In this document: in pieces, positions 1,857-11,834 of the stretch
Layout of the letters: every line of letters starts with the position of its first letter
How positions within the stretch are numbered: position 1 is the stretch's first letter
Assembly (NCBI GenBank): GCA_048882385.1
Contig: JBHLRQ010000066.1
Location: 1 to 11,834, forward strand
Direction of reading: 5' to 3'
DNA from: Candidatus Thorarchaeota archaeon
GTDB taxonomy: Archaea; Asgardarchaeota; Thorarchaeia; Thorarchaeales; Thorarchaeaceae
DNA: 11,834 bases
Translations under genes and position numbers: made by a program
Notes under the pieces: generated by a model
What the model saw: the letters and a program-made list of their open reading frames with translations, nothing else
The model's database searches: none
Told to the model about the DNA's origin: nothing

Positions 1857-3164
1857 TTGATGATGTCAGATAAGATTGAGTTCATAGAGCTAAGGTTTCC
1901 TGATTTGTTGGGTAGAATGAAGGCTATGATAGTGCCTTGCAAACCAGCAGAACATTTGGAAGCTGTATCACACGATCCAGCCTTAAAAAAGGGGACAAGC
2001 TGTGATGGAAGTTCTGTCACGGGTTTAGCAAATGTAGAAGCTTCAGACCTGCATCTTGTTCCGGATCCATCATCTCTAATCGAGCTTCCTTTTGGTTCGC
2101 ATCGAACTGCTGCCGCAATGTGTTTCGTTAGAGAAAAAATAGCCGATGAGTCTGAATACTATCCATTAGATACTAGAGGACTCTTACACAAAACATGCAA
2201 GGAACTACTCCCGGGAAAAATGCGACTTCTTGTCAAAGTGGAACCTGAGTTTCATCTAATTACTCCAGATGGTGAACCATTTGATGAAGCTAGTTATGCA
2301 GACACCTATCCAAAGAGTCCGGGGATGGATATACTGCTTGATATAGCCTCAGCTCTTAGATCTCTCGATATATCAACAAGAGTAATTCATCATGAAGTTG
2401 GAGAATCTCAGCAGGAAATCGAATTAGATTTTGAAGATTCGATGAAGATGGCGGACAATATTCTAGTATTCAAAAATCTTGCTAGGTCAATCTCACAGAA
2501 TCAAGATGTTGATGTTACATTCATGCCAAAACCTTTCGAGAATAAAGCTGGAAATGGCCTTCATTGTCACCTTCAACTCTGGGATGGTGAAAAGAATCTG
2601 TTTGGGGTTGACGATACATCAGAATTATCCGAAACTGCAAAGATGTTTATTGCAGGTTTGATTGAACATGCAGGAGCAATCACTGCTTTTGCTAATCCAA
2701 CAATCAACTCCTACAAACGACTAGTACCTCATCACGAAGCTCCAGTGTATATCACATGGGGAGTGATGAACAGAACTGCTCTGATTCGCGTTCCAATGTT
2801 TAAATCAGGGAATAATGCAGCAATTGAGTTTCGTTCTCCAGATCCAGTTGCTAATCCATATCTCTTATTCACAGCAATTATTGTTGCAGGTATGGATGGT
2901 ATAAGCAGAAAACTCACACCTCCAGACCCTCGTAGCGAAGACATCTTTCATATGACGGATGAAGAGAAGGATAAACTCGGAATTGAGATGCTACCAACTG
3001 CACTAGATGAAGCTCTTCTTGCTCTCAAGAATGATGATGTAATTAGTAAAGCAGTTGGTCCAGATATAATGAGAACATACATCAATCTGAAGAGAGAAGA
3101 ATGGCGTATATACACGAGTGAAATCGTTACAGACTGGGAGTGGGATATGTACGAGTACCACTAA
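1857..3164 (+). CDS. glnA: Glutamine synthetase family (type I / gamma-glutamyl-amine ligase-like)
   Basis: Motifs DGSSV.G…EASD, EPEF, HHEV…Q.EI, TFMPKP…GNGLHCH, NSYKRLVP..EAP, NRTALIRVP and EFRSPDP. The true start is probably ATG 1860 or 1863. Confidence 0.9.
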   Translation: MMMSDKIEFIELRFPDLLGRMKAMIVPCKPAEHLEAVSHDPALKKGTSCDGSSVTGLANVEASDLHLVPDPSSLIELPFGSHRTAAAMCFVREKIADESEYYPLDTRGLLHKTCKELLPGKMRLLVKVEPEFHLITPDGEPFDEASYADTYPKSPGMDILLDIASALRSLDISTRVIHHEVGESQQEIELDFEDSMKMADNILVFKNLARSISQNQDVDVTFMPKPFENKAGNGLHCHLQLWDGEKNLFGVDDTSELSETAKMFIAGLIEHAGAITAFANPTINSYKRLVPHHEAPVYITWGVMNRTALIRVPMFKSGNNAAIEFRSPDPVANPYLLFTAIIVAGMDGISRKLTPPDPRSEDIFHMTDEEKDKLGIEMLPTALDEALLALKNDDVISKAVGPDIMRTYINLKREEWRIYTSEIVTDWEWDMYEYH

Positions 3165-4318
3165 CTCTTACTGAAGAAAGAATACAATCTATCAAAAGCT
3201 TCATCCACAGCTTCAGGAGTTAATGGTCCAATTGAGATGCGAACAAAACCCTCTCCAGAAGCTCCAAAAATGACTCCTGGAAGTAATAATGTCCCAGTAG
3301 ATTGCAATATATCCATGACAAGTTTTCTAGAGTCTGTACAATCCTTTACGCGCGGGAATAGATAGAAAGTGCCTTTGGTGTAAGTTGGCTCGAAAGCATC
3401 AATTTCGCTCATACGCAAATATGCCAAGTCTCGGAGAAGATTAAGCCTTTCAAGCTCTTTGTCAACAGCATCAAGTCCTTCCTTTAACACTTCCAAAGCC
3501 AATAGTTGTCCAGCAGTTGGAGCGCATATTGAAATTGTATCTTGTACCTTGAGAAATTCCTTTGTAAAGTCTGAAGAGCCAACCACAAACCCCACTCGCC
3601 AACCACTCATTCCAAAATCCTTTGAAAAACTACCTAAAGTCAGAACATGGTTTCCTGCATCTCTCCGAGAGCGAGGACTATAATGTTCTGCTCCGTCAAA
3701 AACCATCCTTGAATAGGTTTCATCTGAAACAAGAGTGATATCGTGTTGAATGCAGAGATCTACAATCTGATTTAACACCTTTCTGTCATAAACTGCACCT
3801 GTCGGATTATTAGGTGATATCAGACAGATAGCTCGAGTCGTCTTGTCAATCGCAGCCTCTATTTTTTCAATCTGAGGTTGGAAATTACTATCAACAGGGA
3901 CTTCGACAGCTCTCCCTCCTGCAAGCTTCACCGCCATGACTGAGTTGAAATAGTATGGAGATGGAATTATAACACTCTCATTTGGTTCAATGAGTGTGAG
4001 AATGGCACCAGCAAAAGCATTGTTTGCTCCTGCTGTGATTACAAGCTCATTTTGTGGATTGATATCGATTCCTGACTCTTTACGTAAGTAGAGTGCAAGC
4101 TCTTCACGTAGTTCCAACAGTCCTTCATCGGGAGTATAGAGATGCGTTGAAGGATGAGACATTCTGTCACGAAGCCCGGACAAGGCAACCTCAGGAGGAA
4201 TATGTCCGGAGAGCCCTTGACCGAGGTTCAGAAAGTCTGGAGATGAAATGTATTTCTTGGCAGCTTCCGTTAGTTTGACAATTGGAGGGGCTTGGATATC
4301 TTCAGTCCGATACTTCAT
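3161..4318 (-). CDS. PLP-dependent aminotransferase, class I/II (aspartate/methionine aminotransferase-like)
   Basis: NLGQG, ITAGAN, SPNNPTG, SDETY, PLP-lysine motif SFSKDFGMSGWRVG, GTFYLF and GEGFVRIS. Confidence 0.95.
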   Translation of the reverse strand: MKYRTEDIQAPPIVKLTEAAKKYISSPDFLNLGQGLSGHIPPEVALSGLRDRMSHPSTHLYTPDEGLLELREELALYLRKESGIDINPQNELVITAGANNAFAGAILTLIEPNESVIIPSPYYFNSVMAVKLAGGRAVEVPVDSNFQPQIEKIEAAIDKTTRAICLISPNNPTGAVYDRKVLNQIVDLCIQHDITLVSDETYSRMVFDGAEHYSPRSRRDAGNHVLTLGSFSKDFGMSGWRVGFVVGSSDFTKEFLKVQDTISICAPTAGQLLALEVLKEGLDAVDKELERLNLLRDLAYLRMSEIDAFEPTYTKGTFYLFPRVKDCTDSRKLVMDILQSTGTLLLPGVIFGASGEGFVRISIGPLTPEAVDEAFDRLYSFFSKS

Positions 4319-4446: not shown

Positions 4447-5850
4447 ATGCCAAGCTCAGCTGAAGTTGCTGAAGGTCGTAAGAAAGTCCAGAGAGCCGCT
4501 TTGATCTCTGTCCTAGCAGCAGCTACTCTAACCGGAATGAAGTTTGTGATAGGTCTGCTTACAAACTCACTCGGAATTATATCTGAAGCACTTCACAGTG
4601 GATTAGATTTCGCTGCAGCTGGCATAACCTTGATTGCAGTTAGAAGAGCATCAAAGGGACCTGACTCAGAACATCAGTTTGGTCATGGTAAGATCGAGAA
4701 TTTCGCTGCTCTGTCGGAAACCATCATTCTATGGATAACTTCTGTGTGGATTATAGTTGAAGCTTGGAGAAGGATTGAGTTACAAGAATGGCCAGAGGCA
4801 TCATTGTGGGGCATCCTTGTAATGACGATTGGAGTTGTTGTCACCTTCTGGCAAAGTAGAGTGCTATACAGAACTGCAGAAGAACACGGAAGCCAAGCTC
4901 TTGAGGCTGATGCTCTGCATTTTAGGACAGATATGATAAGCTCGATTGTCGTTCTATTAGGACTTGGATTTGTGTGGATTGATATACCGATTGCAGATCC
5001 TTTAGCTGCTATTGGCGTTGCGATAATTATCTTTGTTATTTCCTACCGTTTAGGACGGAGAACATTTGATGCACTCACAGATACAGCACCCGAAGGATTG
5101 AAGGAGGAGATTATCAAAAGAGTAGAAAGCATCAGTGATGTAGTCGAGTGCAGAAGGACCCGTGTCAGGCACTCAGGACCGGAGCTCTTTGTGGACATTG
5201 TGGTATCAGTTGACGAATCTGTGAGAATATCGGAAGCTCACGGTGTGACTGACTTGATTGAAAGAGCATTACTGGACTTAGCGCCACGTGTTGATGTCGT
5301 TATTCATGTTGAACCCTCTGAGGGAGATGATGCTGAGTTCCTAAAACTAGATATCTACAACCAGATGCAGGTGATTGCTCGGAGACTGTCCCATGTACAC
5401 AGTGTCCACAATCTTCGTGTCTTCTTAACTCCAGAAGGCATTGATATTGCAGCAGACTTGGAGTTATCCGAGAGTCTTACACTTGATGAAGCTCACTCGA
5501 TTTCAGAGAGATTTGAAGAGAGCTTGAAGAATATGGTTCCTCATGTGAATACTGTTACGTTGCATCTTGAAACCACAATCAGAGAAAGTCCCGCTCAAGA
5601 CATAACTCATGAATCGTCTGAGATTATTGAATTGATTACCAAGATAATGAAAGATACATCTAAATCTACAATATGCAGTAACATTGTTGTTCAGAAAGAG
5701 GAAAACGAAGTTGCGGTCCTTATTACATGCACAATTTCAGGTGAGACAACTCTGACCGAGAGTCATGAGATAGCTGAATCATTCAAAAAGAGGATTATTG
5801 AAACTCTCCCGGAAATCAACTCTGTCTTTATTCACTTTGAACCCTGCTGA
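4447..5850 (+). CDS. Cation diffusion facilitator (FieF/YiiP-like) with three tandem C-terminal ZT_dimer-type domains
   Basis: Six hydrophobic TM segments, HSGLD (TM2), HQFGHGKIEN and HFRTD (TM5). Three repeats of about 86-90 aa each contain E[AS]H and end in IHVEP, LHLET and IHFEP. Confidence 0.93.
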   Translation: MPSSAEVAEGRKKVQRAALISVLAAATLTGMKFVIGLLTNSLGIISEALHSGLDFAAAGITLIAVRRASKGPDSEHQFGHGKIENFAALSETIILWITSVWIIVEAWRRIELQEWPEASLWGILVMTIGVVVTFWQSRVLYRTAEEHGSQALEADALHFRTDMISSIVVLLGLGFVWIDIPIADPLAAIGVAIIIFVISYRLGRRTFDALTDTAPEGLKEEIIKRVESISDVVECRRTRVRHSGPELFVDIVVSVDESVRISEAHGVTDLIERALLDLAPRVDVVIHVEPSEGDDAEFLKLDIYNQMQVIARRLSHVHSVHNLRVFLTPEGIDIAADLELSESLTLDEAHSISERFEESLKNMVPHVNTVTLHLETTIRESPAQDITHESSEIIELITKIMKDTSKSTICSNIVVQKEENEVAVLITCTISGETTLTESHEIAESFKKRIIETLPEINSVFIHFEPC

Positions 5851-5900: not shown

Positions 5901-6680
5901 ATGGACGAAGAATGTGCAGTCAAAATTCTTGGAGCGCCTGAGGCACAGGTCGTTCAGACAAAAGAAATTGAAATGAAACAACCTCTATTGGTGTGTTGTT
6001 TCCCATCAGCTGGAGTTGTAGGTACAATTGCAGCTCAAGAAATGATTCAGCAGTTTGAGATGGAAGAGGTTGCACATGTCAGATCACGATATATGCCTTC
6101 AGCAGCTGTTTTTCAGGATGGTCGTTTACGTCATCCTTTCAGAGTTTATGGTAAGAAGGACAAGAACCTTCTTGTTGTGACAGCAGAACTACCAGTAGCC
6201 GATGAGGGGCTTTATGTTGTTAGTTCCACCCTTCTTGATTGGGGTGCGACAGTTGGAGTCAAGGAAACAGTAATCCTTGATGGTATTCCTGTGCAAGGGC
6301 TTCCTACTTCACGTAAAGTATTGTACGCAGCGGAGGAGGAAAAGATCAATGAACTTGCAAAGGATGAAACAATGGAGATTCTCAGTAAGGGAATAATTAC
6401 TGGAATTGCAGGTTCGATTCTATCGGAAACACTATGTAGAGAGATGGTTGGATTTGCACTGTTGACACCTGCAATTGCAATGGTTCCAGACCCTGCAGGT
6501 GCAGTTCAGTTACTTGAAGCACTAAATAGGTTATACAAAGTCGATGTAAATGTTACAGATCTAAAAGAAAGTGCAGCTGAAATCAAATCAAAGATGGAAG
6601 AGATGGCTCAGCAAGTAGAAGGGATGCGTAGACAACAACAAGGTGCGGGTAGACCGGGATACGAGAGAATGTATGCTTAG
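5901..6680 (+). CDS. PAC2-family proteasome assembly chaperone/activator (PbaA/PbaB-like) with C-terminal HbYX motif
   Basis: FPSAGVVGTIA, HPFRVY, LDGIP, GIITGIAG, PDPAGA and a helical tail ending M-Y-A. RBS GAGGT, and a TTAATA box at 5858-5863. Confidence 0.9.
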   Translation: MDEECAVKILGAPEAQVVQTKEIEMKQPLLVCCFPSAGVVGTIAAQEMIQQFEMEEVAHVRSRYMPSAAVFQDGRLRHPFRVYGKKDKNLLVVTAELPVADEGLYVVSSTLLDWGATVGVKETVILDGIPVQGLPTSRKVLYAAEEEKINELAKDETMEILSKGIITGIAGSILSETLCREMVGFALLTPAIAMVPDPAGAVQLLEALNRLYKVDVNVTDLKESAAEIKSKMEEMAQQVEGMRRQQQGAGRPGYERMYA

Positions 6681-7228
6681 TCTGTACAGGAGTCATATGC
6701 TTCCTTTGCACCTTGGGCATTACGCTCTCCTACCTTACCTGCCCAGTTTTCACAGATGACTTTCTGCACGGTTTCAAGCTTGACAAGACCAGTAGCTTTA
6801 GCAATCGCTCCGAGCATTGTAGTATTGATCACTGGCAATCCTCCTACTAGTAGCCCATTCTTGAGTGCTATGCCTGTTCCATCATATGTGTAAATGTGAC
6901 CCATTGTTAGACTTATCTCACTAGGTGCCTTTGGAGTATTGATTATAACCTTGCCATTCTCAACGAGTCCTTCTGTGACGTCAATGAGATCTAATAGTGT
7001 AGAATCAAGAACTGCTACTATATCGGGGGTGTACACCTGACTTCGGACATTGATTTCTTCGTTATCAATTCGTGTAAAAGCTTTGACTGGAGCTCCACGA
7101 CGTTCTGCTCCAAAATAGGGAAAAGCCTGTACTCCCTTGTATCCATCAATATAAGCAGCCTTCGCAAGTAGTTCAGCAGAAGTGACACCACCTTGTCCAC
7201 CTCTTCCGTGCCATCTGATTTCTATCAA
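6677..7228 (-). CDS. porC: Pyruvate/2-oxoacid:ferredoxin oxidoreductase gamma subunit
   Basis: IEIRWHGRGGQGGVT, QAFPYFGAERRGAPVKAFTRI, PD…VLD and NTTMLGA. Start reassigned to TTG 7228 (AGGAG 9 nt upstream), giving 183 aa instead of the track's 231 aa. Confidence 0.93.
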   Translation of the reverse strand: MIEIRWHGRGGQGGVTSAELLAKAAYIDGYKGVQAFPYFGAERRGAPVKAFTRIDNEEINVRSQVYTPDIVAVLDSTLLDLIDVTEGLVENGKVIINTPKAPSEISLTMGHIYTYDGTGIALKNGLLVGGLPVINTTMLGAIAKATGLVKLETVQKVICENWAGKVGERNAQGAKEAYDSCTD

Positions 7229-7331
7229 TATCAAAGACTCCTGAGAACGTGTGGGATTGCCAAGCCTTGCGCGGGAACGGCCAAACATAACCTTTACGTT
7301 CTTGATACTTCTGAATTGAGTGTGATGTAAT

Positions 7332-8144
7332 ATGGACGAGTTTCTAAACACTAACAGAGAATTATGGGACAAACTCGCTAAAATACATCATGAGTCAGAG
7401 TTCTATGATGTTGAGGGATTTTTGAAAGGAAAACAGACTCTCGATCCCATCGAGATAGATGAACTTCCAGACGTCACAGGAAAGAAACTACTCCATCTTC
7501 AATGTCATTTTGGAATGGACACACTATCTCTGGCAAGACTTGGTGCAGAAGTAACAGGAGTTGATTTTTCGTCTGAAGCCATCGAGCTTGCCAAATCTCT
7601 AAGTAAATCCGCTGGAATCAAAGCACGGTTTATTTGTTCAGATGTATATGATATTCGAAAGGTTCTGGATGAGGAATTCGATATTGTATTCACATCGGGA
7701 GGAGTGATCACGTGGCTTCCAGATCTTGAGGAATGGGCACAGATAATTTCATCTTCACTGAAAACTGGTGGTATCTTCTACATTCGTGAATTTCATCCCT
7801 TCGCCTATGTTTTTGACGATGCAGATGACATCAAAGAACTTAGAGTGAAATACCCATACTTTCAGGGAAAGGAGCCACTGATGTTTGAAGATGAAGGAAC
7901 ATATGCAGATAAGGATGCTAAGACGGGAATGATGCGAACCTATGAGTGGAACCACCCAATTTCTAGGATAATTAACGTATTGATTAGGAATGGACTTCGA
8001 ATAGATCATCTCCATGAATTCCCCTTCACAGCATACAAGGCATTACCGTTTATGATAAAGAATCAAGATGATAGGTGGGTCCTTCCTGATAATGGGGACA
8101 AAGTACCCCTGATGTTCTCAATCAAAGCGACAAAGACTGATTAG
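7332..8144 (+). CDS. Class I SAM-dependent methyltransferase
   Basis: Motif I variant LLHLQCHFGMDTLS, VTGVDFS, FDIVFTSGG and LKTGGIFYIREFHP. Confidence 0.92.
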   Translation: MDEFLNTNRELWDKLAKIHHESEFYDVEGFLKGKQTLDPIEIDELPDVTGKKLLHLQCHFGMDTLSLARLGAEVTGVDFSSEAIELAKSLSKSAGIKARFICSDVYDIRKVLDEEFDIVFTSGGVITWLPDLEEWAQIISSSLKTGGIFYIREFHPFAYVFDDADDIKELRVKYPYFQGKEPLMFEDEGTYADKDAKTGMMRTYEWNHPISRIINVLIRNGLRIDHLHEFPFTAYKALPFMIKNQDDRWVLPDNGDKVPLMFSIKATKTD

Positions 8145-9562: not shown

Positions 9563-10669
9563 TTAGAGCACATCAATTGGAATTCCCTGGTTTGCAGATT
9601 CATACGCAGCATCCACAATTTTGTGTGCTTCAACAGCATCTTGGAAGTTTGGAGAATATGTTTCGCTTGAGCGGACAGATTTGAGAAACGAATAGCTGAG
9701 TGCAACTTGTTTGTTGATACTCAAATCCTTTAATGGTTCACGAATCCCTAGTGCTATTTTCTTAGCGGAGATGCCCAGATGGTCGAGAAGGATATCCTCA
9801 ACATTTTCTGAATGAATACGAACTGAATCTTCGCCTTGAAGCTGGTAATCGAGATACTTGTTTCCAGATTCGAGGACAACATGTATGTACCCTCTCTCAA
9901 AGAAAAACTCAAAGTTTCTTTCTTCTGAACGCTCAACTAAGTGCCAAACTGCATCAACAGTACTTGAAGTTCCGTCTTTATGCCTCATGACCAAGGAAGC
10001 TTGGTCCTCAATACCTCGCTCTGAAAAGAAACCTACTTGAGCATAGACATTGACAATATCTCCAAAAAACCAATTTAGAACATCGATGTCATGGACACAC
10101 TGTTCTAAAATGATACCACCACCAGGAACAGAGTTTTCGCCTCTCCACTGAGTGTAATCTTCCTTTTCAAGAGGAAACTGCTGATCATCTCGAATATGGG
10201 CGAGGATTGGTTTACCAAAATCGTGTTTTTCGATCAGCTTCTTGGCATATAGCAAGAAAGGGTCAAATCTAAGATTGAGACCTGCACTTGTTTTGACAGC
10301 GTTGTCAAGAGCGATAGAGTTTAGTTCACGAACTTGTGGGCAACTATGAGCCACTGGTTTTTCACAATAGACCGCTTTTTTTGCTCGAGCTGCAGCTTTT
10401 ACCATTTCGCGATGCTTACTAGTTGGCGTACAGACATAAACCACATCCACATGCTCATCATTCACCAGATCTTCATGATTTTCATAAATCTTGGATATCC
10501 CAAATTCCTTAGCCAATTTCTTGGCTTTCAAATTGTCAGAATCGCAAATTGCAGTAATCTTGAAGCCAAGAAGACCTGAATTATTAATAGCTGTCAATGC
10601 CGCGAGGTGAGTCCTACCAGTTTTCCCAATCCCGATGAGGCCTAGACGAAGTCCTGCTTCATTGTTCAA
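9563..10669 (-). CDS. Gfo/Idh/MocA-family NAD(P)-dependent oxidoreductase
   Basis: GLIGIGKTG, VYVCTPT..H, CEKP, LRF.P and GGGIILEQCVHDID. TTG start. Confidence 0.92.
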   Translation of the reverse strand: MNNEAGLRLGLIGIGKTGRTHLAALTAINNSGLLGFKITAICDSDNLKAKKLAKEFGISKIYENHEDLVNDEHVDVVYVCTPTSKHREMVKAAARAKKAVYCEKPVAHSCPQVRELNSIALDNAVKTSAGLNLRFDPFLLYAKKLIEKHDFGKPILAHIRDDQQFPLEKEDYTQWRGENSVPGGGIILEQCVHDIDVLNWFFGDIVNVYAQVGFFSERGIEDQASLVMRHKDGTSSTVDAVWHLVERSEERNFEFFFERGYIHVVLESGNKYLDYQLQGEDSVRIHSENVEDILLDHLGISAKKIALGIREPLKDLSINKQVALSYSFLKSVRSSETYSPNFQDAVEAHKIVDAAYESANQGIPIDVL

Positions 10670-10818
10670 CAGGTGTCAACTACCAGCCACATATTTGTCA
10701 TGTATGTATTTTAGTGTTCTTAGAAATCAAGTTAATATTCTAATCATCACGACAACTGTTATGAGGCACATGAATACATGAACACTCAACGAATCATGGA
10801 AATTGAAGTGACGGTACA

Positions 10819-11834
10819 TTGACCGATCAAGACATACTCAAAGAGGCTAGAAGTGCACTAAAAGAAGGGAACAAGGAAGTAGCTGGAAAATTACTTCTTG
10901 CCGCAGCAAGTAGATTGTCAGACAAAATGGAGTACAAAGAAGCAGCAAAAGTCTATGAAGAGGCTGCTGTTGTTTTCAGAGATGCATATGACGCATCTGA
11001 GAGTTTCAAGGCATTCGACAATGTCACCCTCATGCTAATTCGACTTCCCCAGGAAGAAAGCGTCTATCAGGAGATTGTACGAGTAAACAAAGAAGCAGCA
11101 AAGGTTGCTGAAGAGGCAACAGAATACAAGAGAGCAGCAGAATTCTATTTTCGTGCTCAGGACTTTGCTTCAGATGAGGAAAAAAGAGAGTTGAACATCA
11201 AAGCTGCTGATGCACTAGAGAACCTTGCTGATATCAGAGAGGAAGAAGAGGATTTTGCTGAAGCAGTCAGTCTTCTACGAAAAGTGAGCCGTTTGTATTA
11301 TACGGCTGGTGATGATGAACTCGGAGAGCGAATTAATGATCGGGCTGCTCGTCTTGCTCGTAGATGGGCAGATATTGCCAAAAACAACGGGGATTTTTTG
11401 TCGGCTGGAAATGCACTTGCTGAAGCTGCGCAGATAATGGACACTGGAGAATCAACAGAAGCCATGCGAATAATGATGGAAGCTGGAGAACTCTACGAGG
11501 CTGCAGAGCTTTTTGAAAAGGCAGGTAATATCTATGATGCCGCTCAAGAAGCTTACAAACTGCAGAGACTCACGTCAGCCAGAAATCAGGCCATGTCAAA
11601 AGCTGCTGAAGCCTATTTGAAGACACAAGGGTCAGCTGAAGCTGTGGCACCACTTCTTGTTAAAGGAGGAAACATGTTCCTTGAGATTAGTCGACCAATG
11701 AAGGCAAAGTGGGCATTCAAGCGCGGAAATGAGTTATTTGGAGAACTTGCAGAGAAAGCTAAAAGTCGTAATGATGTAGAGTCCGAGATGAAGTATTATA
11801 GATTCCAAGCAATGTGTCTGGAGAAGTGGGGAGC
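10819..11834 (+). CDS. Alpha-solenoid protein with alpha-SNAP/Sec17-like (TPR-related) helical repeats; 3' end truncated by the window
   Basis: Not in the ORF track. Frame +1 is open from TTG 10819 (in-frame TGA at 10804-10806 upstream) to the window end, 338 codons: MTDQDILKEARSALKEGNKEVAGKLLLAAASRLSDKMEYKEAAKVYEEAAVVFRDA…GDFLSAGNALAEAAQI…LFEKAGNIYDAAQEAYK…. Ala/Glu-rich with about 20-aa helix periodicity. Confidence 0.88.
   Translation, partial: MTDQDILKEARSALKEGNKEVAGKLLLAAASRLSDKMEYKEAAKVYEEAAVVFRDAYDASESFKAFDNVTLMLIRLPQEESVYQEIVRVNKEAAKVAEEATEYKRAAEFYFRAQDFASDEEKRELNIKAADALENLADIREEEEDFAEAVSLLRKVSRLYYTAGDDELGERINDRAARLARRWADIAKNNGDFLSAGNALAEAAQIMDTGESTEAMRIMMEAGELYEAAELFEKAGNIYDAAQEAYKLQRLTSARNQAMSKAAEAYLKTQGSAEAVAPLLVKGGNMFLEISRPMKAKWAFKRGNELFGELAEKAKSRNDVESEMKYYRFQAMCLEKWG

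Follow-up and report, generated by a model that had tools for sequence, protein, structure and literature searches.

A strongly conserved TPR-type alpha-solenoid of Thorarchaeota that resembles SNAP proteins at the level of its repeats

The first 11,834 nucleotides of an 18,071-nt contig (JBHLRQ010000066.1, here C66) from a Candidatus Thorarchaeota archaeon (assembly GCA_048882385.1; 3.70 Mb in 256 contigs, 95.3% complete), hereafter referred to as the window, end inside a real gene that encodes an all-helical repeat protein of about 600 residues, called here the solenoid gene and the solenoid protein. Asgard archaea are being mined for forerunners of eukaryotic membrane-trafficking machinery, to which a relative of the SNARE-recycling adaptor SNAP/Sec17 would be a notable addition, and an initial annotation of the window had proposed that the gene encodes such a relative or another trafficking scaffold. 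This reading is only partly supported. On the basis of predicted models, the protein is a tetratricopeptide repeat (TPR)-clan alpha-solenoid of the long-repeat subclass that also comprises SNAP/Sec17, LGN/Pins and kinesin light chain (KLC), and at this level the fold class can be regarded as established. It resembles SNAP only as TPR-type repeat proteins generally do and is not a demonstrated SNARE-recycling factor.

The gene had been described as a large open reading frame (ORF) missing from the ORF track, which is confirmed by the ORF listing, where a 338-aa frame on the plus strand (10819..11832, TTG start, 3' end open) appears only if ORFs with open ends are requested. No in-frame start codon lies upstream of the TTG at 10819 back to the preceding stop, and this start is supported because the N-termini of homologues (MTSDE..., MTTLQE...) line up with that of the window protein and because a 601-aa gene of the same genus (L077:1495-3300) likewise begins with TTG. 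The end of the window is followed by a run of exactly 100 N (contig positions 11835-11934), after which the frame resumes (LGVPELATIW...) and reaches its stop at contig position 12360. Compared with the family profile, the genome holds positions 2-332 and 449-589, so that about 116 residues are missing. The run of N thus appears to be a scaffold gap of conventional size that understates the length of the true sequence. Full-length relatives measure 576-646 aa, in agreement with the earlier remark that the protein is longer than alpha-SNAP. As stand-ins for the whole protein, the same-genus gene and P0003 were used, the latter being 90% identical and 576 aa long as called, which is about 22 residues short at the N-terminus. 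The coordinates of the features discussed below are collected in Table 1.

Table 1. Features at the 3' end of the window and the basis on which each was placed
Feature	Position	Strand	Basis and remarks
GFO/IDH/MocA-family oxidoreductase gene	9563..10669	-	Pfam; adjoins the solenoid gene even where the local order is rearranged
AT-rich divergent intergenic region, 149 nt	10670..10818	.	ORF coordinates and sequence; lies between the oxidoreductase gene (-) and the solenoid gene (+)
5' part of the solenoid gene (338 codons + 2 nt)	10819..11834	+	ORF listing and translation; homologues 50-90% identical, without internal stops
FLSAGNALAEAAQI	11395..11436	+	Helix paired by HMMER with alpha-SNAP WSAAGNAFCQAAQL
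Most conserved block, helices 11-15 (window-protein residues ~218-307)	11470..11739	+	Sliding conservation

The repetitive character of the protein is evident in its sequence and in its predicted structure. In the window protein the motif [YF]xxA[AG]xx[YF] occurs four times, compared with a mean of 0.09 in shuffled sequences, and a looser form of it nine times, compared with a mean of 0.45; neither count was reached in any of 2000 shuffles. The five motif strings quoted in the initial annotation are all present, with FLSAGNALAEAAQI exactly at 11395-11436. An AlphaFold2 model of the 338 residues (predicted local distance difference test score, pLDDT, 94.4; predicted template modelling score, pTM, 0.81) contains 16 helices and no strands, with a spacing of about 21 aa per helix and 42 aa per hairpin, which bears out the suggestion of roughly 40-aa hairpins rather than 34-aa TPRs. 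The model of the 576-aa relative (pLDDT 90.2) contains 27 helices and again no strands. In these models the full protein starts with a series of some 13 hairpins, each made of two antiparallel helices and about 42 residues long, and closes with a distinct helical C-terminal domain of 140 residues with a basic tail. The protein is predicted to be soluble, since the maximum Kyte-Doolittle value over 19 residues is only 0.6-1.25, and acidic, with an isoelectric point of 4.7-5.5. An identity as a PCI or proteasome-lid protein was dropped because models without strands contain no winged helix. No internal duplication was evident when halves and thirds were compared with hhalign, which gave a probability of only 19-46% between non-overlapping segments.

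All fold matches listed by Foldseek and VIA-align are TPR-type solenoids or designed repeats, those listed by Foldseek for the 576-aa and 338-aa models being TPR solenoids throughout. With the 338-aa model, the top rows of VIA-align are Pins (Z 17.0), LGN (16.8), Sec17 (15.3), KLC2 (15.1) and consensus TPRs (about 14), with alpha-SNAP at 13.6 and gamma-SNAP at 12.4, values that must be read with the tool's own note that helical repeat models often reach a Z of about 13-14 against unrelated repeats. Residues 35-215 of Sec17 superpose on model residues 1-179 with 2.5 Å over 161 residues, the tightest long alignment among the matches listed. When the whole 576-aa model is used, the root-mean-square deviation rises to 16.9 Å for Sec17 and 12.5 Å for gamma-SNAP. 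Sec17 and SNAP surfaced only in the VIA-align search, and no SNAP chain is among the matches listed by Foldseek against the PDB for either model. LGN/Pins and KLC thus tie structurally with Sec17.

LGN/Pins (GPSM2), whose TPR domain provides the best structural matches with both the 338-aa model and the whole model (Z 15.2 for the latter), shares with the solenoid protein the long TPR-type repeats of about 40 residues arranged in a superhelix, and the LGN/Pins superhelix binds extended peptides in its channel. In contrast to this likeness, no significant sequence match links the two, their global deviation is about 14 Å in long alignments, the solenoid protein has no GoLoco region, and LGN/Pins is a eukaryotic cell-polarity protein. 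The TPR_12 or kinesin-light-chain type (PF13424, cut-off 30.1 bits) is approached from the sequence side as well: P0028 reaches 47.0 bits, P0017 34.8 bits and P0012 exactly the cut-off, while the other six of the nine members scanned stay below it, the window protein at 16.5 bits, and profile positions of about 320-430 draw long TPR proteins. However, the canonical TPR families are outscored by SNAP (PF14938) in every one of the nine members, and full-length P0003 matches no NCBIfam family, TPR or other. The only NCBIfam match of the window protein, TraY at 16.9 bits, was rejected as chance. Likewise, DOCK DHR-2 lobe A (PF06920), which scores 30.6 bits in the window protein against a cut-off of 26, was set aside as cross-talk; it stays below the cut-off in P0004 (23.6), P0007 (22.3), P0028 (17.4) and P0033 (16.9) and is unlisted in the remaining four. 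The same model is found as a precomputed tag on the genuine eukaryotic SNAPs P0245, P0249 and P0251, and seems to cross-react with SNAP-type repeats.

At the sequence level the likeness to SNAP is real, and SNAP takes first place. PF14938 leads the Pfam results in all nine members scanned, with 33.4-64.7 bits against a cut-off of 25. At E ≤ 1 the family profile retrieves 13 PDB sequences, namely eight chains of alpha-SNAP, gamma-SNAP or Sec17, of which the best has E 6e-6, and five TPRs of OGT, all at E ≥ 0.04. The alpha-SNAP string that the initial annotation had cited is real, as HMMER aligns FLSAGNALAEAAQI to WSAAGNAFCQAAQL when run against alpha-SNAP chains of the PDB. In hhalign, a comparison of family alignment A1 with a 20-sequence SNAP alignment (A3) gives 79% probability (E 1.6e-5), and the more diverse family alignment A4 gives 96.7% (E 3.9e-10, 181 columns). 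Both proteins have Ala-rich antiparallel hairpins of some 40 residues with a motif of the same type, and both are acidic and soluble.

This likeness must nevertheless be taken with caution, since several observations point to a similarity of repeats and not to collinear orthology. Only the repeat region of SNAP is matched: the best PF14938 stretches fall within positions 29-175 of the 282 of the profile, hhalign with A1 or A4 stops at SNAP residue 214-218 of 292, leaving the C-terminal bundle unmatched, and the C-terminal 147 residues of the family reach 2% against SNAP. The register depends on the method, with HMMER placing family helix 10 opposite the SNAP helix that contains WSAAGNAF, hhalign with A1 shifted by one hairpin relative to this pairing, and hhalign with A4 setting family residues 36-272 opposite SNAP residues 32-214. 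The segments 1-150, 150-320 and 300-450 each match SNAP at 76-90%, better than they match one another. Controls run against the same SNAP alignment yielded 95.7% for the generic multi-TPR protein P0027, 68.8% for the generic TPR_12 protein P0168, and 74.6% and 77.7% for two unrelated ORFs of the window genome. PF14938 also matched proteins in 4 of 14 well-known prokaryotic control genomes, two of them over the cut-off, and five further frames in the window's own genome, three of them over it. Because control genomes and unrelated ORFs of the same genome pass as well, the PF14938 cut-off discriminates only weakly. PF14938 ranks above the TPR families in nine out of nine members, and generic TPR proteins reach the same hhalign scores against SNAP.

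Sliding conservation sets one block of the protein apart (Table 1), with values of 0.72-0.78 compared with 0.34-0.68 elsewhere. It holds EKAGNIYDAAQE, RLTSARNQ, VAPLLVK and PMKAKWAFKR, which are nearly invariant in 21 sequences down to 23% overall identity; helix 12 corresponds to EKAGNIYDAAQE.Y, and the invariant columns are Y226, K234, A235, G236, Y239, E244, R250, L279, F287, K295, W298, A299 and F307. LGN, KLC and SNAP bind peptides or helices with the surfaces of their repeats, and because of this analogy we infer that the block is a partner-binding core and that the solenoid protein is probably a non-catalytic scaffold or adaptor. The surface formed by helices 11-15 would hold at least one partner protein, in the form of extended segments or of helices, and the C-terminal domain with its basic tail would act as a second contact module. 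Several points weigh against this adaptor role. The conserved neighbours of the gene (the GFO/IDH/MocA oxidoreductase, UPF0047, a PIN-domain protein, NAD kinase and aIF5A) are metabolic or housekeeping genes and provide no functional handle. The structural Z scores of 13-17 lie in the range obtained for unrelated repeats, which on the models makes the fold class secure and finer kinship not. Finally, helix 12 is invariant on essentially all of its faces in the 21-sequence alignment, and since this constraint exceeds what a simple docking surface usually needs, it leaves room for a ligand-binding or other role.

The family is a narrow one. A word search returned 26 proteins, of which 25 belong to the solenoid family and all named ones come from Thorarchaeota, and among species-representative genomes 66 loci were found, all titled Thorarchaeota, Promethearchaeota or unnamed archaeal metagenome-assembled genomes (MAGs). 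One cluster member carries a Lokiarchaeota label from its source. When 301 genomes sampled from the phylum were searched (E ≤ 1e-10), the gene was found in 73 of the 76 that share the GTDB family of the window, in G112, the only genome from a sister family (about 24% identity), and, as a fragment on a small contig, in one of seven genomes of another family; it was not found in the 216 genomes sampled from 27 other families, which is not proof of absence. An exhaustive profile search of 1.84 billion representatives gave 206 matches at E ≤ 0.001. The 13 of these at E ≤ 1e-30 are all members of the solenoid family or fragments of them, the remaining matches are long TPR proteins aligned at profile positions of about 320-430, together with one true SNAP at E 1.2e-4, and no full-length relatives outside the family were found in this search. 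The solenoid gene is single-copy, syntenic and vertically inherited in Thorarchaeota and almost confined to them. That the DNA is archaeal, as had been supposed, agrees with the named relatives, which are Thorarchaeota MAGs, and with the aIF5A gene downstream. The homologues are not broadly bacterial, as those of a generic solenoid had been expected to be, and with SNAP ranking first in sequence, the case that the initial annotation had foreseen against itself is only partly borne out.

The genes around the solenoid gene are conserved as a block. Upstream, the window holds genes for a DUF72 protein, glutamine synthetase, an aminotransferase, a CDF transporter, a PAC2 protein, a POR-family protein and a methyltransferase and then, nearest to the solenoid gene, for an amine-oxidase-like flavoprotein and the divergent GFO/IDH/MocA oxidoreductase. 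The AT-rich region between the oxidoreductase and solenoid genes is presumed from its position to be the promoter region of both. Downstream follow UPF0047, which begins 64 nt past the stop of the solenoid gene, a conserved 106-aa ORF, a PIN-domain protein, NAD kinase, aIF5A and Lrp. Many of the 66 loci are truncated at a contig end. The amine-oxidase-like gene is kept in 57 of them, UPF0047 in 55, the 106-aa ORF in 54, the PIN-domain gene in 53, the oxidoreductase and NAD kinase in 51 each and aIF5A in 48. The downstream genes had been named as a place to look for trafficking partners. The 18-kb contig contains neither a small GTPase gene nor one for a longin, SNARE or AAA+ protein.

From this conservation it could be argued that the solenoid protein acts together with the GFO/IDH/MocA oxidoreductase and the YjbQ-like UPF0047 protein, as the scaffold or regulator of a small metabolic module. 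Besides the counts above and the short distance to UPF0047, this would be in line with the arrangement in G112, where the order is rearranged, yet UPF0047, the oxidoreductase and the solenoid gene run co-directionally with gaps of about 21 nt and 6 nt. As a hint of linkage, the G112 spacing is weak, since conservation extends anyway to the entire block between Lrp and aIF5A on one side and the amine-oxidase-like gene on the other, and the adjacency may reflect slow rearrangement among relatives and not a common function. Moreover, no known functional link between the GFO or UPF0047 families and TPR proteins was found, although no dedicated test was made. A metabolic module of this kind is accordingly considered unlikely, and a general scaffold or adaptor is preferred.

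Further observations concern the neighbours themselves. The 106-aa ORF (contig positions 12845-13165, minus strand; L002:2846-3166) matches no Pfam family and, retained with up to 85% identity, is likely a real small protein. The CDF (cation-efflux) transporter (window 4447-5850, plus strand, 467 aa) carries three Pfam matches to the ZT_dimer cytoplasmic domain, which suggests a repeated C-terminal domain that would be unusual for its family. The PAC2-family gene (proteasome assembly chaperone 2-like; 5901-6680, plus strand, 133.6 bits) is kept in 41 of the 66 loci. The longest ORFs of the POR-family gene (6677-7372, minus strand) and the methyltransferase gene (7332-8144, plus strand) overlap by 41 nt head to head; of the two starts listed there, one (TTG at 7372) has probably been placed too far upstream.

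The proposal that the family is a true functional relative of SNAP/Sec17 would require more than a resemblance of repeats. In this case the repeat sheet would lie along a helical-bundle substrate and recruit an archaeal Cdc48-type AAA+ ATPase for disassembly, amounting to a pre-eukaryotic SNAP/NSF system. The leading place of SNAP in Pfam, in the PDB search and in hhalign, the match of three successive segments to SNAP and the superposition on Sec17 are all in favour, and the genome encodes two Cdc48 proteins, which are general in archaea, with a control search matching 4 archaeal reference genomes. In SNAP, a Gly/Phe-rich N-terminal loop serves membrane insertion, the C-terminal helical bundle faces NSF, and a conserved Leu near the acidic C-terminus has a role in NSF stimulation. 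The solenoid family differs at each of these places: after the first helix it reads ...KEGNKEvagKLL... where the SNAP consensus has KSxxGFxGxxFGG, so that a loop of the FxGxxFGG type is absent; the matches end at about SNAP residue 214-234, so that the bundle is unmatched; and most of the family tails listed end Lys/Arg-rich and without the SNAP-type ...DLL, whereas the SNAP alignment closes with ...DLx and P0196 with ...SAEPDLL. The family is also about twice as long as the SNAPs collected, which are mostly 288-298 aa. In the 95.3%-complete genome no SNARE domain exceeds its cut-off (PF05739 best 17.2 bits against 26.8; no match to synaptobrevin, PF00957), although divergent SNARE-like proteins could escape Pfam. 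Together with the disagreement between registers and the scores of 69-96% that generic TPR proteins and ORFs reach against the same SNAP profile, these differences make a functional SNAP very improbable.

A 2026 preprint on Heimdall SNARE-like complexes leaves open which archaeal ATPase or adaptor takes them apart (10.64898/2026.10.19.760048), which counts in favour of a SNAP relative. Neither this nor a second Heimdall SNARE paper mentions a SNAP-type adaptor or Thorarchaeota in the parts available, and the SNARE-like proteins published there are from Heimdall, whereas none of the non-Thor Asgard genomes sampled yielded a member of the solenoid family. What stands of the SNAP relationship first proposed is the sequence ranking; the role as SNARE-recycling adaptor is not supported. 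A reading of the family as an archaeal precursor or counterpart of SNAP, in which a double-length sheet on a helical-bundle substrate recruits one of the Cdc48 paralogues to unfold it, is similarly hard to credit; if it were true, the adaptor-plus-AAA+ logic of SNARE recycling would predate eukaryotes. A role as co-chaperone or assembly factor like Hop/Sti1, Sgt or BamD, capturing short C-terminal peptides of clients or chaperones, would be in line with the TPR domains of Sti1, Hop, Sgt2, FKBP, RPAP3 and STUB1 among the structural matches (Z 12-14) but is just as poorly placed, since these rank under LGN, Sec17 and KLC and extend over just 120-220 residues, no co-chaperone family is matched in Pfam or NCBIfam, and the 42-aa repeat differs from the 34-aa carboxylate-clamp TPRs.

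PF14938 matches are found on other archaeal proteins as well. The solenoid family's own ESM Atlas cluster is auto-named 'SNAP domain-containing protein', while the source names of its members are 'hypothetical protein' or 'tetratricopeptide repeat protein', and other PF14938 clusters come from Promethearchaeota (525 aa), Methanobacteriota (393 aa), Thorarchaeota (245 aa) and Bathyarchaeota, these look-alikes being leads from feature similarity without alignments. Because the auto-name and the Methanobacteriota, Bathyarchaeota and Promethearchaeota clusters share it, the SNAP tag is already in public annotation and not specific to Asgard archaea. In the literature covered, mostly in the form of listings, no description of an archaeal SNAP-like protein was found; the supplementary tables of surveys of Asgard eukaryotic signature proteins, which were outside the scope, might list PF14938. 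Within the window's genome, a 243-aa Ala-rich helical ORF on contig C33 (L073:1450-2181, plus strand) has PF14938 as its sole Pfam match (29.2 bits, profile positions 28-89) and adjoins an ORF that by eye resembles HMG-CoA reductase; as a paralogue of the solenoid protein it was rejected (hhalign 5%). On contig C7, a TPR_12-type protein of SNAP size (290 aa; L071:1189-2061, minus strand), whose C-terminal tail is strongly acidic, matches PF14938 over the cut-off with 31.9 bits. Directly upstream and co-directional lies the gene for a 237-aa Ras/Arf-like small GTPase (L071:2175-2888, minus strand; Pfam Ras 45 bits, Arf 35 bits), and such a pair of TPR and small-GTPase genes in an Asgard genome may deserve separate attention. 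On contig C25, a 526-aa TPR protein (L072:682-2262, plus strand) is followed 45 nt further by an ORF (2307-3422, plus strand) with the P-loop GRPGTGKT that by eye resembles a KaiC/RecA-type ATPase.

Taken together, the SNAP tag on this Thorarchaeal family reflects repeat similarity within the TPR clan and not a demonstrated SNAP function. This guards against counting the family as a eukaryotic signature protein and calls for caution in reading PF14938 matches as trafficking machinery. What is left standing is a strongly conserved, lineage-specific scaffold of about 600 residues with an unusually invariant core, which would be a reasonable target for interaction screens in Thorarchaeota.

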